Positions 3 through 23,357 of a stretch of 38,240 nt of DNA are shown piece after piece. The notes below the pieces were generated by a model. The model searched no databases. It had not been told where the DNA came from and saw nothing but the letters and a program-made list of their open reading frames with translations. A program made the position numbers and the translations under genes. The first letter of the stretch is position 1, and each line of letters begins with the position of its first letter. Source of the DNA: Candidatus Nanohalobium sp. (lineage in GTDB: Archaea; Nanohalarchaeota; Nanosalinia; Nanosalinales; Nanosalinaceae); contig JBDGTY010000057.1 of NCBI GenBank assembly GCA_042216335.1, positions 1 through 38,240 on the forward strand, given 5' to 3'.

Positions 3-75
3 AGCCCCGTCCGAGATTTGAACCCGGGACCTCGTCCTTACCAAGGACGTGCTCTACCAGCTGAGCTAACGGGGC
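3..75 (-). tRNA. tRNA-Thr(GGT), no intron
   Basis: Reverse complement GCCCCGTTAGCTCAGCTGGTAGAGC-ACGTCC-TTGGTAA-GGACG-AGGTC-CCGGGTTCAAATCTCGG-ACGGGGC-T folds into a cloverleaf with anticodon GGT. Confidence 0.95.
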
Positions 76-12198: not shown

Positions 12199-12259
12199 TG
12201 ACGAAAACCTGTTTCTTCCTTTAAATCCTGAAATCGCCTGATTCGTAGAAATAAGGGCT

Positions 12260-12403
12260 TGCGGGGGACAAGATTCGAACTTGCGAACGGCTAACCGACA
12301 GGGTATTTTAATCGAAGGCGTCTGCCTTCTCAGTCCCCGTTTCCACTGCTGGGAAACTTGAGGTTCCTAAACCCTGCGCCTTTGACCACTTGGCTACCCC
12401 CGC
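12260..12403 (-). tRNA. tRNA-Leu(TAG) with 61-nt intron (12305..12365) at position 37/38
   Basis: GCGGGGGTAGCCAAGTGGTCAAAGGCG-CAGGG-TTTAGG|intron|A-CCCTG, long variable arm, GTTCGAATC T-loop; TTTA(32-35) pairs with intron TAAA as the BHB central helix. Confidence 0.92.
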
Positions 12404-12566
12404 ATATCGTGTACCCGAAAGGGATTTTCGTGCCTGCTTGTGGAGAAGCAGACGTATACTCAATTGTGGAGTATTAAGTCTTTTTAATGGGTTCGTTGTT
12501 GTGCTGCTTCTGCTGGAAAGGAATTTAAGGCTGCCCTCTGGAAAAAGATTACAGGGGGAGTAGTTC

Positions 12567-21851: not shown

Positions 21852-22013
21852 ACCGAGTCTTGAGAGCCAGATTTTAAACCGGTTTCCACCTGCATTCAAG
21901 CTCACCGTCGCAGGAATCCTCGTCATGGCCACAGCCATCGGATACAGAACACTCTGACCTCAACACAGACACCTAATATAAAACTGGCCGACAACTTCAC
22001 AAACACAGATCAA

Positions 22014-22300
22014 GGGGGTGTAGCTCAACCTGGGAGAGCGACCGCCTCCAGGGACTGGTTACGCTCGGTCCACACGCAATTAGGCATTCGAGGAATGCCT
22101 GTCAGTGGATCAGTTTGACTAACTGGAGGGATGAGGGACACTGGCTCGCTTCTGCGTGTCAGTTCAAGAAGATCTTTCGGATCTTCGTGTTCCGATGATT
22201 ATATTCCCGAGACGCATTCCTAGAATGCGTCATGATGATCAAACTTTCAGAAGTTTGCGGAGAGAGCGGTAGGTTGTGGGTTCAAATCCTACCGCCCCCA
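22014..22300 (+). tRNA. tRNA-Trp(CCA) with 213-nt intron (22052..22264) at position 37/38
   Basis: GGGGGTG acceptor pairs with CGCCCCC-A; ACCGC-CTCCAG|intron|A-GCGGT; CTCC(32-35) pairs with GGAG at the intron end followed by an AG|A bulge; GTGGG-TTCAAAT-CCTAC T-arm. Confidence 0.93.
22052..22264 (+). ncRNA. Intron-encoded box C/D-like guide RNA (predicted target C34 of tRNA-Trp)
   Basis: Guide CTGGAGG (22123-22129) is complementary to tRNA nt 31-37; the fifth nt upstream of D-like ATGA (22131-22134) pairs with C34; two K-turn-like D/C pairs. Confidence 0.7.
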
Positions 22301-22346
22301 TACTTCTTCCGAAAACATCAAATTAGTAAGCTTCCGTGTAACTGTT

Positions 22347-23357
22347 ATGGGGGAACAGGGGAGTATCATTACCGATGCCAGAGTCCTGACTGCGGACTAC
22401 CTTCCTAATAAGATGGTGCATAGAGAGGGTGAGAGACAGGAAATCGCCCGGAACCTCAAACCACTGGTCGAGGGAGGTAATCCGGAGAACATGCTTCTTT
22501 ACGGGCCGCCGGGAACCGGGAAGACAGCGATGGCTCGTTACGTTGTCGAAGAATTGAAGGAGGAGGTCTTCGCCAATTCGAGTTACGTTAACTGTTTCAG
22601 CCAGAAGTCCCGTTTCGAGATTTTCTACGAACTTCTGGGCCAGAAGCTGACTACTCCACGCGACGGGACTTCGACGGAGAAGATCGTGGATATGTTCGAG
22701 GAAAGGGTGCGGAAGGAACCTACGGTCATGATAATCGATGAGGTCGACCAGATCACGGATGACGAGGTTCTCTACGAGCTTTCCCGTTTCCATAATGTCG
22801 GGATGATCTTCATCGCCAACGACCAGAAAGTATTCTCCCACTTCGAAGACCGGGTCAGATCCCGTTTAAGCGGGATGAGAAGGATCCACTTCAGAAGGTA
22901 CGACAGAAAAGAACTGAAGGACATACTCGAGGCGAGGAGGAAACACGGACTGAAGAAAGACGTTGTATCAGACGAACAGCTGGAGGAGATCGCCGCTAAA
23001 GCCGGTGGAGACGCCAGGATAGCCCTGAATACTCTGCGCTTTGCCGCACGGGAGGCCGAAAGGCAGGAAAAGGGTGAGATCACGGATGGAATCATTGATG
23101 AGTCTGTATCCGAGGCATTCGACGAGAACAGGCTGGAATCCCTTGACCGCCTGAACGAGCACCAGAAGACGGCCTACAGCATCTTACAGGAAGAGGGCGA
23201 GATGCAGATAGGGGAGCTTTACGACAGGTACCAGGAAGAGGTAGATGATCCGAAGTCACGGCGTACACTGCTGCGCTACCTGAAGAAGATGGTGAATTAC
23301 GACATACTGGAAATGCAGGGTTCAACAAGCTCAGCTACCTATAAACTGGCCGACTGA
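22347..23357 (+). CDS. cdc6: Orc1/Cdc6-family AAA+ protein
   Basis: L..DYLP..MVHRE, GPPGTGKT Walker A, IIDEVD Walker B, RVRSRL, GDARIAL, C-terminal winged helix. Confidence 0.93.
   Translation: MGEQGSIITDARVLTADYLPNKMVHREGERQEIARNLKPLVEGGNPENMLLYGPPGTGKTAMARYVVEELKEEVFANSSYVNCFSQKSRFEIFYELLGQKLTTPRDGTSTEKIVDMFEERVRKEPTVMIIDEVDQITDDEVLYELSRFHNVGMIFIANDQKVFSHFEDRVRSRLSGMRRIHFRRYDRKELKDILEARRKHGLKKDVVSDEQLEEIAAKAGGDARIALNTLRFAAREAERQEKGEITDGIIDESVSEAFDENRLESLDRLNEHQKTAYSILQEEGEMQIGELYDRYQEEVDDPKSRRTLLRYLKKMVNYDILEMQGSTSSATYKLAD

Follow-up and report, generated by a model that had tools for sequence, protein, structure and literature searches.

The window, the whole stretch of 38,240 nucleotides analysed here, is contig C53 of the source genome G000 (1.02 Mb in 74 contigs). 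Other G and L numbers denote the genomes and loci of its relatives. One protein encoded in the window is closest, among named organisms, to Candidatus Nanosalina sp. VS9-1 (71% identity), which identifies the source as a nanohaloarchaeon. ARAGORN in intron mode identified a tRNA-Trp(CCA) gene on the forward strand (22014-22300), interrupted at position 37 by an intron of 213 nt; the gene was missed by default ARAGORN and by Rfam. The 5' exon (22014-22051), the intron (22052-22264) and the 3' exon (22265-22300) were defined from ARAGORN (-i), the sequence and 30 orthologous genes. In the tRNA numbering, which is our own count with the acceptor stem starting at 22014, C34 is 22048, G37 is 22051 and A38 is 22265. 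The 213-nt intron described in the initial annotation was thus borne out by both ARAGORN and the sequence, and direct reading of the sequence confirmed base for base all the motifs listed there.

The intron sits at the canonical archaeal position 37/38. Its bulge-helix-bulge is canonical: C32-C35 of the anticodon loop (22046-22049, forward strand) are paired with GGAG at 22259-22262, adjoining the anticodon stem, with a 3-nt bulge on either side (A36-G37-G22052 and A22263-G22264-A38). GGAG and the AG of the 3' bulge occupy 22259-22264 of the forward strand, and the 3' splice site follows 22264. GGAG(N)(N) lies immediately 5' of A38 in 28 of the 30 orthologs and is GGGG in the other two. EndA and RtcB are both encoded in G000, with PF01974 and PF01139 matches above the cut-off.

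Many tRNA genes in G000 contain introns, which reach 178 nt in genes other than tRNA-Trp. The window itself includes an intron-less tRNA-Thr(GGU) (3-75, reverse strand) and a tRNA-Leu(UAG) (12259-12404, reverse strand), whose intron of 61-64 nt is in the canonical position. A similar intron is present in tRNA-Lys(CUU) on contig C41, and both show ACCUCAAG, a hairpin, GGAC(U/G)GAGAA and another hairpin. A common intron module, UCGAGGCGU(C)AGCCGA ... UGGAACC(A/C)UAGUGA, is observed in tRNA-Lys(UUU) (G000 C16:37642-37873, 156-nt intron) and tRNA-Arg(UCG) (C45:22206-22458, 178-nt intron).

The core of the tRNA-Trp intron spans 22123-22201 on the forward strand. It starts with the antisense guide CUGGAGG (22123-22129), which is complementary to C31-G37 (22045-22051), so C32-C35 have the guide as a partner alternative to GGAG. 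After one base, the D'-like box AUGA follows (22131-22134); the fifth base 5' of it is G22126, which stands opposite C34. Stem I (22135-22193) is composed of GGGACAC (22135-22141) and GTGTTCC (22187-22193) and encloses two inserted hairpins (22142-22186). This insert is common to several genera. The core ends with a 3-nt bulge of G, A and U (22194-22196) and the overlapping C'-like box AUGAUUA (22195-22201), together spanning 22194-22201. The predicted kink-turn (kink-turn 1) is canonical, with stem I, the 3-nt bulge, tandem G.A pairs, a U.U pair and one Watson-Crick pair. In topology, it is predicted to correspond to a C'/D' motif of the internal type, together with the guide of D'.

The window contains a single exact copy of the 12-mer CTGGAGGNATGA. 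When one mismatch is allowed, there are two matches against 1.2 expected, and the 12-mer is therefore not significant by itself. It is conservation and covariation in relatives, rather than the motif alone, that argue for its reality. Among the first 30 related loci, 15 are tRNA-Trp genes, with introns of 55-268 nt. These introns share a block of (C/U)UGGAGG, one base, AUGA, a stem and AUGAUUA, as well as GGAG just before the 3' splice site. The covariance model R1, built from an alignment of this block (A1), was searched over the genomes of the order and the family. It matched 42 of the 70 genomes of the order and 37 of the 49 of the family, with one copy per genome except for two in G013. 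When R1 was searched again, all 31 loci matched, and 30 of them were within a tRNA-Trp gene identified by ARAGORN.

The 31-row alignment shows how tightly this core is fixed. UGGAG of the guide is invariant in all 31 rows. There is no indel between the guide and the D'-like box, and the one-base spacer is fixed throughout; thus, the N+5 position falls on C34 in 31 of 31 aligned introns. The D+5 rule, which the initial annotation had found to land on C34 in this intron, holds across the relatives. GA of the D'-like box is present in all 31 rows and AU in 30, the exception being CC in L018. Likewise, A-U-G-A of the C'-like box is found in all 31 and UU in 30, with CG in L018. In L018, CCGA faces GAUGAC, where a compensatory G-C replaces the U-A pair of the boxes. 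This change supports the assignment of AUGA and AUGAUUA as D'-like and C'-like boxes joined by a compensatory pair, as had been proposed. Another compensatory change is seen in G009, where the last G of the guide is U and C31 of the tRNA is A.

Stem I also covaries. In this alignment (A2), 93.9% of the cells are paired, five of the six pairs show double changes, and none of 500 shuffles reaches the score; since A2 was fitted to R1 and the genomes are kin rather than independent samples, these figures overstate independence. An independent MAFFT alignment leads to the same result. The claim of a tRNA-Trp intron with a C34 antisense next to a kink-turn is supported by these data.

The shortest introns indicate what the family design contains. 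Nine of the 30 introns (L096, L091, L079, L074, L075, L089, L072, L093 and L085) are only 55-100 nt long, with at most 12 nt 5' of the guide and at most 15 nt after C'. In 12 of the 30, just 5-12 nt separate the 5' splice site from the guide. The nine introns are too short for further boxes, indicating that the family design is a one-kink-turn "half-mer" guide and not a permuted four-box RNA. No conventional box C (RUGAUGA) was found 5' of the guide in the 30 orthologs, and the nine short introns have no room for it; a conserved one at this place was one of the observations that the initial annotation had named as contrary to its proposal. On the other side of the core, no consistent complement to the tRNA follows C' as a second guide, and position 39 is G. 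A weak match to GGGAG of the D-loop after C' (~13 of 31, allowing G-U) was dropped, as it comes without any D box. Rfam gave no C/D family for 21950-22350, either at the gathering threshold or at E up to 10, and RF01133 had no match in G000 at E up to 1. The guide duplex is 7 bp, or 6 bp where the first pair is lost. Typical archaeal guides are longer than 7 bp.

Downstream of the core, a second unit is found in the window. After a 5-nt spacer (22202-22206), it consists of the D-like CCGA (22207-22210), a hairpin formed by GACGCATTC (22211-22219) and GAATGCGTC (22223-22231), and ATGATGA (22232-22238). It has GA on both strands and a 9-bp stem; as long as the last G-C stays closed, its bulge is limited to 2 nt (A, U). 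The box C of the window lies 3' of the D-like box. On this basis, a permuted D-C-D-C architecture had been proposed. The order of D' then C' is the normal internal order, and any permutation therefore depends wholly on the second unit.

The second unit is poorly conserved. In 15 of the 30 tRNA-Trp introns, the tail from C' to GGAG is 7-18 nt long and has no second unit. At the position seen in the window, ten introns, from five genera, carry a C-like box with U and a hairpin after it, and two more have the same two-hairpin layout without the box. GA is present in both the D-like and the C-like boxes in only three of the 30 (G000, G045 and G043). In the other introns, the D-side box is CUGU, UGUA, UUAA or UUUA, and the C-side box is UGGUGA or GUGAUAA. 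The spacer between C' and the D-like box, 5 nt in the window and 4-8 nt in the orthologs, carries no guide. Of the two kink-turn pairs whose conservation was at issue, kink-turn 1 is thus present in 31 of 31 introns, whereas the CCGA/AUGAUGA pair is kink-turn-competent in only 3 of 30. The permuted architecture is not supported, as its second pair is not conserved and is a copy of a dispersed repeat.

This repeat, module B, occupies 22207-22257 of the forward strand. It includes the D-like CCGA, the 9-bp hairpin (22211-22231), the box C AUGAUGA (22232-22238), U, and the hairpin CAAACUU/UCAG/AAGUUUG (22240-22257). The 25-mer UGAUGAUCAAACUUUCAGAAGUUUG, allowing up to three mismatches, was found in 25 of 50 family genomes in up to nine copies each, and the reversed control gave none. 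The closing pairs of the hairpin covary (C-G, G-C, A-U, U-A and CG-CG). In 37 distinct copies, a variable self-complementary stem ends within 7 nt of the C-like box. GA is present at box positions 3-4 in 32 of the 37, and GA plus a helix on the other side in only ~15. Other copies in G000 are located on C32 (beside tRNA-Leu(UAA)), C46 (antisense, in the intron of tRNA-Thr(CGU)) and C50.

Thirty module B loci were sorted by eye for position and orientation. In most of them, the end of the hairpin is flush with a tRNA exon boundary. Sense copies lie just 5' of a tRNA 5' end or 5' fragment (6 of 30), at the 3' end of an intron (2) or before a copy of a tRNA 3' fragment (4). Antisense copies lie against a tRNA 3' end or fragment (11) or at the 5' end of an intron (3). 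Two loci are just before a protein start, and two are unclear. The sequence comparison indicates that the "perfect box C" and CCGA of the intron come from this dispersed family at tRNA exon boundaries. Module B is probably not required for the guide, and it may have a role in the 10 of 30 tRNA-Trp introns that keep it.

Two other readings of module B were considered. A hammerhead ribozyme, suggested by CUGAUGA plus a hairpin, was ruled out by eye, as neither GAAA nor stem III follows. A promoter, suggested by copies abutting tRNA 5' ends, was dropped; there is no TATA-like element, and antisense copies exist. At L052 and L056, module B or a cassette of both modules is immediately followed by a protein-coding start; in L052, the hairpin abuts ATG of a DnaJ-like ORF. 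Within the window, CUUUCAG (22244-22250) in the terminal hairpin of module B is complementary to the C34 guide (22123-22129) with two G-U pairs, and this pairing is present in the unconstrained minimum-energy fold. From its sequence, CUUUCAG could be a guide decoy, or the match could be a coincidence.

At the other end of the intron, module A (22052-22100, forward strand) comprises the hairpin P1 (GGACUG, loop GUUACGCU and CGGUCC; 22052-22071), the linker ACACGCAA (22072-22079) and the hairpin P2 (22082-22100). The pattern GTTACGCTN{5,10}CGCAA was found in 32 of 50 family genomes, and not in the reversed control. Module A begins flush with exon ends, and its closing stem is at least 4 bp in 26 of 38 copies. 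Among 30 loci, sorted partly by eye, ~12 are at intron 5' ends (Cys, Ala, Arg, Thr, Gly, Val and Trp tRNAs), 8 are directly after tRNA 3' ends, and 3-5 are antisense against tRNA 5' ends. Module A is followed in the window by a degenerate B-like piece (22103-22125, forward strand), composed of CAGUGGAU and the hairpin CAGUU/UGACU/AACUG (22111-22125); this weak assignment is based on comparison by eye with A and B composites. The 3' strand of its hairpin overlaps the first three bases of the guide.

Modules A and B are also joined to each other in a ~90-nt cassette, with direct repeats of tRNA end segments on its flanks. Examples are found at tRNA-Asp, Ser, Ala, Pro and Met genes, and the repeat at tRNA-Leu of G000 is 16 nt long. 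Neither module (loop GUUACGCU, ACGCAA, and the CUGAUGAU plus CAAACUUUCAGAAGUUUG hairpin) matched an Rfam family, and a literature search returned no description of modules A and B or of nanohaloarchaeal tRNA introns. Intron transposition is known in Thermoproteales, and archaeal integrative elements duplicate tRNA ends. Both are similar to the present case, with modules across tRNA introns, leaders and trailers, and tRNA-end direct repeats flanking the insert.

Tandem partial copies of tRNA 5' or 3' ends (13-23 nt) flank A/B cassettes and other small hairpins. They were observed at L047 (tRNA-Met), L050, L054 (tRNA-Pro), L039, L065 (tRNA-Ser), L046 (tRNA-Tyr), L051 (tRNA-Asp), L063 (tRNA-Ala) and G000 C32:4000-4200 (tRNA-Leu). 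These copies look like scars of repeated insertion or integration at tRNA genes. A third recurring hairpin, GAAAAYC...GRUUUUCGA, often immediately precedes the 3' splice-site helix or separates duplicated tRNA fragments, for example in tRNA-Lys(CUU) (C41) and tRNA-Arg(CCU) (C45) of G000 and at L042, L053 and L078.

From the dispersal of the modules, the intron in the window can be resolved into module A with the degenerate B-like piece (22052-22125), the core with its stem hairpins, and module B (22207-22257). It is conceivable, and we put it forward only tentatively, that A and B are the two ends of an undescribed three-hairpin cassette of ~90 nt, which would colonise tRNA exon boundaries (5' ends, 3' ends and splice sites) in both orientations across the family, duplicate tRNA ends on insertion and build long introns, either as a mobile element specific to tRNA boundaries or as a processing signal specific to the lineage. 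In a few genomes including G000, a kink-turn-competent copy would then have landed 5 nt behind C', generating a tandem double kink-turn, topologically equivalent to a C/D RNA that is open within its C-to-D' spacer.

The proteins for a C/D RNP and for splicing are encoded in G000: fibrillarin, Nop5 and L7Ae in addition to EndA and RtcB. The genes for Nop5 and fibrillarin overlap by four bases on C58 (L100:1402-2148 and 2145-2819). In an alignment with its S. solfataricus counterpart, Nop5 of G000, 248 aa long, covers only residues 118-376; it keeps the coiled coil and C-terminal domain and lacks the N-terminal fibrillarin-binding domain. It is this N-terminal domain that binds fibrillarin in solved complexes, and the RNP may therefore not assemble as in textbooks. 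PF08156, which represents the N-terminal domain, is uninformative here because archaeal controls fail as well. A 147-aa ORF just upstream of the two genes had no Pfam match. A strict four-box C/D pattern gave no match in G000. A looser terminal-stem C/D scan gave six matches against one in the reversed control, and G000 has at least one candidate of the ordinary four-box C/D sRNA type (C10:3968-4034, forward strand), with AUGAUGA, 16 nt, CUGA, a stem-loop, UGAUGA, 14 nt, CUGA and a 5-bp terminal stem.

Taken together, it is likely that this is a protein-spliced intron which carries a conserved one-kink-turn half-mer guide for C34 and has received lineage-specific insertions of hairpin modules. 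The 7-nt antisense directly 5' of AUGA would pair with C31-G37 of its own pre-tRNA or of another copy, and AUGA and AUGAUUA would form the canonical kink-turn across the covarying stem. L7Ae would bind this kink-turn, and Nop5-fibrillarin would then 2'-O-methylate C34, opposite the fifth base upstream of D'. The pre-tRNA is expected to alternate between two conformations, this guide form and a splicing form that pairs C32-C35 with GGAG (22259-22262). In constrained folds, the two forms are at -89.5 and -89.0 kcal/mol, respectively, a gap within 0.5 kcal/mol. Such near-equal predicted energies are consistent with a conformational switch as described for Haloferax. Excision of the intron, and probably its circularisation, would be carried out by EndA and RtcB. 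The other ~130 nt would be lineage-specific hairpin insertions: A at the 5' splice site, two inside stem I, and B on the 3' side.

Other explanations of the same features are less favoured. If the intron were a circularly permuted, hairpin-expanded four-box C/D RNA, the hairpin-closed CCGA-hairpin-AUGAUGA would be the terminal C/D motif, the C-to-D' spacer would be completed via the circle junction or the tRNA body, and a two-kink-turn RNP with a Nop5 dimer would methylate C34. Each unit of the window does contain GA on its two strands, and the units are arranged in tandem so that their non-canonical stems face one another; G045 and G043 show the same arrangement. A B-type unit occupies that position in 10 of 30 tRNA-Trp introns, no conventional box C precedes the guide, and excised archaeal introns, including that of tRNA-Trp, are described as stable circles in PMC3326292. 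However, the second unit is missing in 15 of 30 orthologs and kink-turn-competent in only 3, the one in the window has only a 2-nt bulge when its stem is fully paired, and it is a generic repeat which is also found antisense in other tRNA introns. The spacing is also unfavourable. Only 4-8 nt separate C' from D, and ~97 nt would separate box C from the guide once the intron of the window is a circle, against ~12 nt for spacers in ordinary C/D RNAs. In the guide form, the tRNA body adjoins the D' end of the duplex and not the box C end. This architecture is thus improbable.

It also seems quite unlikely that the antisense and the kink-turn constitute an L7Ae-dependent device for folding or timing, which would sequester the anticodon loop, control the timing of bulge-helix-bulge formation or stabilise the excised circle, without guiding methylation. 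The two mutually exclusive, near-isoenergetic pairings of C32-C35, the guide of just 7 bp and the loss of the fibrillarin-binding domain from Nop5 fit such a device, as does the dispensability of the Haloferax tRNA-Trp intron and its methylations, as cited in PMC11408192. On the other hand, the one-base spacer fixed in 31 of 31 introns sets C34 at N+5, which would be expected if fibrillarin is targeted there, and less so if the loop is simply sequestered. Overlapping genes for fibrillarin and Nop5 are present, and the design is homologous to that of the experimentally demonstrated guide of Haloferax and Pyrococcus. As for the modules, they could be RNA processing signals of the lineage, A marking 3' boundaries of RNAs and B the 5' boundaries of excised segments, so that the box C would belong to a processing element also serving the tRNA-Trp splice sites. 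Whenever A is in sense, an exon end precedes it (among 30 loci, sorted partly by eye, ~12 are at intron 5' ends and 8 at tRNA 3' ends), and whenever B is in sense, an RNA start comes after it (a tRNA 5' end in 6 cases, a protein start in 2, or the 3' end of an intron). The stems covary with fixed loops and linkers, and the same tRNA bears a module in several genera, such as tRNA-Glu(UUC) trailers in G011, G016 and G004. Against this, antisense copies are flush with tRNA ends at 14 of 30 B and 3-5 of 30 A loci, an orientation that abolishes the box sequences, cassettes are flanked by duplicated tRNA end fragments that resemble DNA insertion, and many tRNAs and 18-25 of 50 genomes have no modules. 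Little weight is given to this reading.

The half-mer guide can be compared with known systems. In Haloferax, C34 is reportedly the target of the D' guide. The 103-105-nt intron of Haloferax volcanii and Pyrococcus sR50 are similar to the present intron in the gene, the position 37/38 and the bulge-helix-bulge splicing, and also in the anticodon-loop antisense, C34 as an internal D' target, the C'/D'-type kink-turn and the two alternative pre-tRNA folds. Unlike those introns, as far as they are known from descriptions, position 39 is G, D' is AUGA, C' is AUGAUUA, and U-A replaces G-C. The length of 213 nt, about twice that in Haloferax, is due to the inserted modules. According to published descriptions, the tRNA-Trp intron harbours a box C/D RNA directed at C34 and U39 and is a stable circle after excision (PMC4090602, PMC3326292, PMC2584109), and the C/D and C'/D' boxes of the euryarchaeal intron guide Cm34 and Um39 (PMC2584109, PMC4090602, PMC3326292, PMC7994747, PMC11408192). 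The known introns thus have four boxes (C, D', C' and D) and two guides for C34 and U39 in the accounts of PMC2584109 and PMC4090602, whereas one kink-turn and one guide are found here.

Half-mer or single-domain C/D RNAs also have one kink-turn, one antisense element and the N+5 rule. They are laboratory constructs or terminal-stem units with the guide between box C and box D, and in published in-vitro work they are said to be less active or specific than two-kink-turn RNAs. In contrast, the kink-turn here is hairpin-closed in the C'/D' topology and does not include the guide, which a loop of 5-173 nt connects in cis to its target. A minimal single-domain snoRNA is cited in PMC7994747. The tRNA-Trp intron of Sulfolobus solfataricus, 65 nt long and a stable circle, likewise has a 7-nt complementarity to the anticodon region without a full box set, and its description in PMC3326292 gives it no consensus C/D boxes. 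Unlike in that intron, one kink-turn is clearly present here and invariant.

The tRNA-Trp intron is the textbook example of an intron serving as a modification guide for the RNA that hosts it. The present family indicates that this design can be reduced to a single kink-turn with a single guide, which are invariant across dozens of genomes. The half-mer intron and the truncated-looking Nop5 both bear on the minimal requirements for the function of archaeal C/D RNPs, and the natural intron of 55 nt is a substrate with which those requirements can be tested. The modules at tRNA boundaries are the less expected result and the more novel lead. Modules flush with exon boundaries, together with the duplicated tRNA ends, provide material on the origin and spread of archaeal tRNA introns and fragmented tRNA genes.
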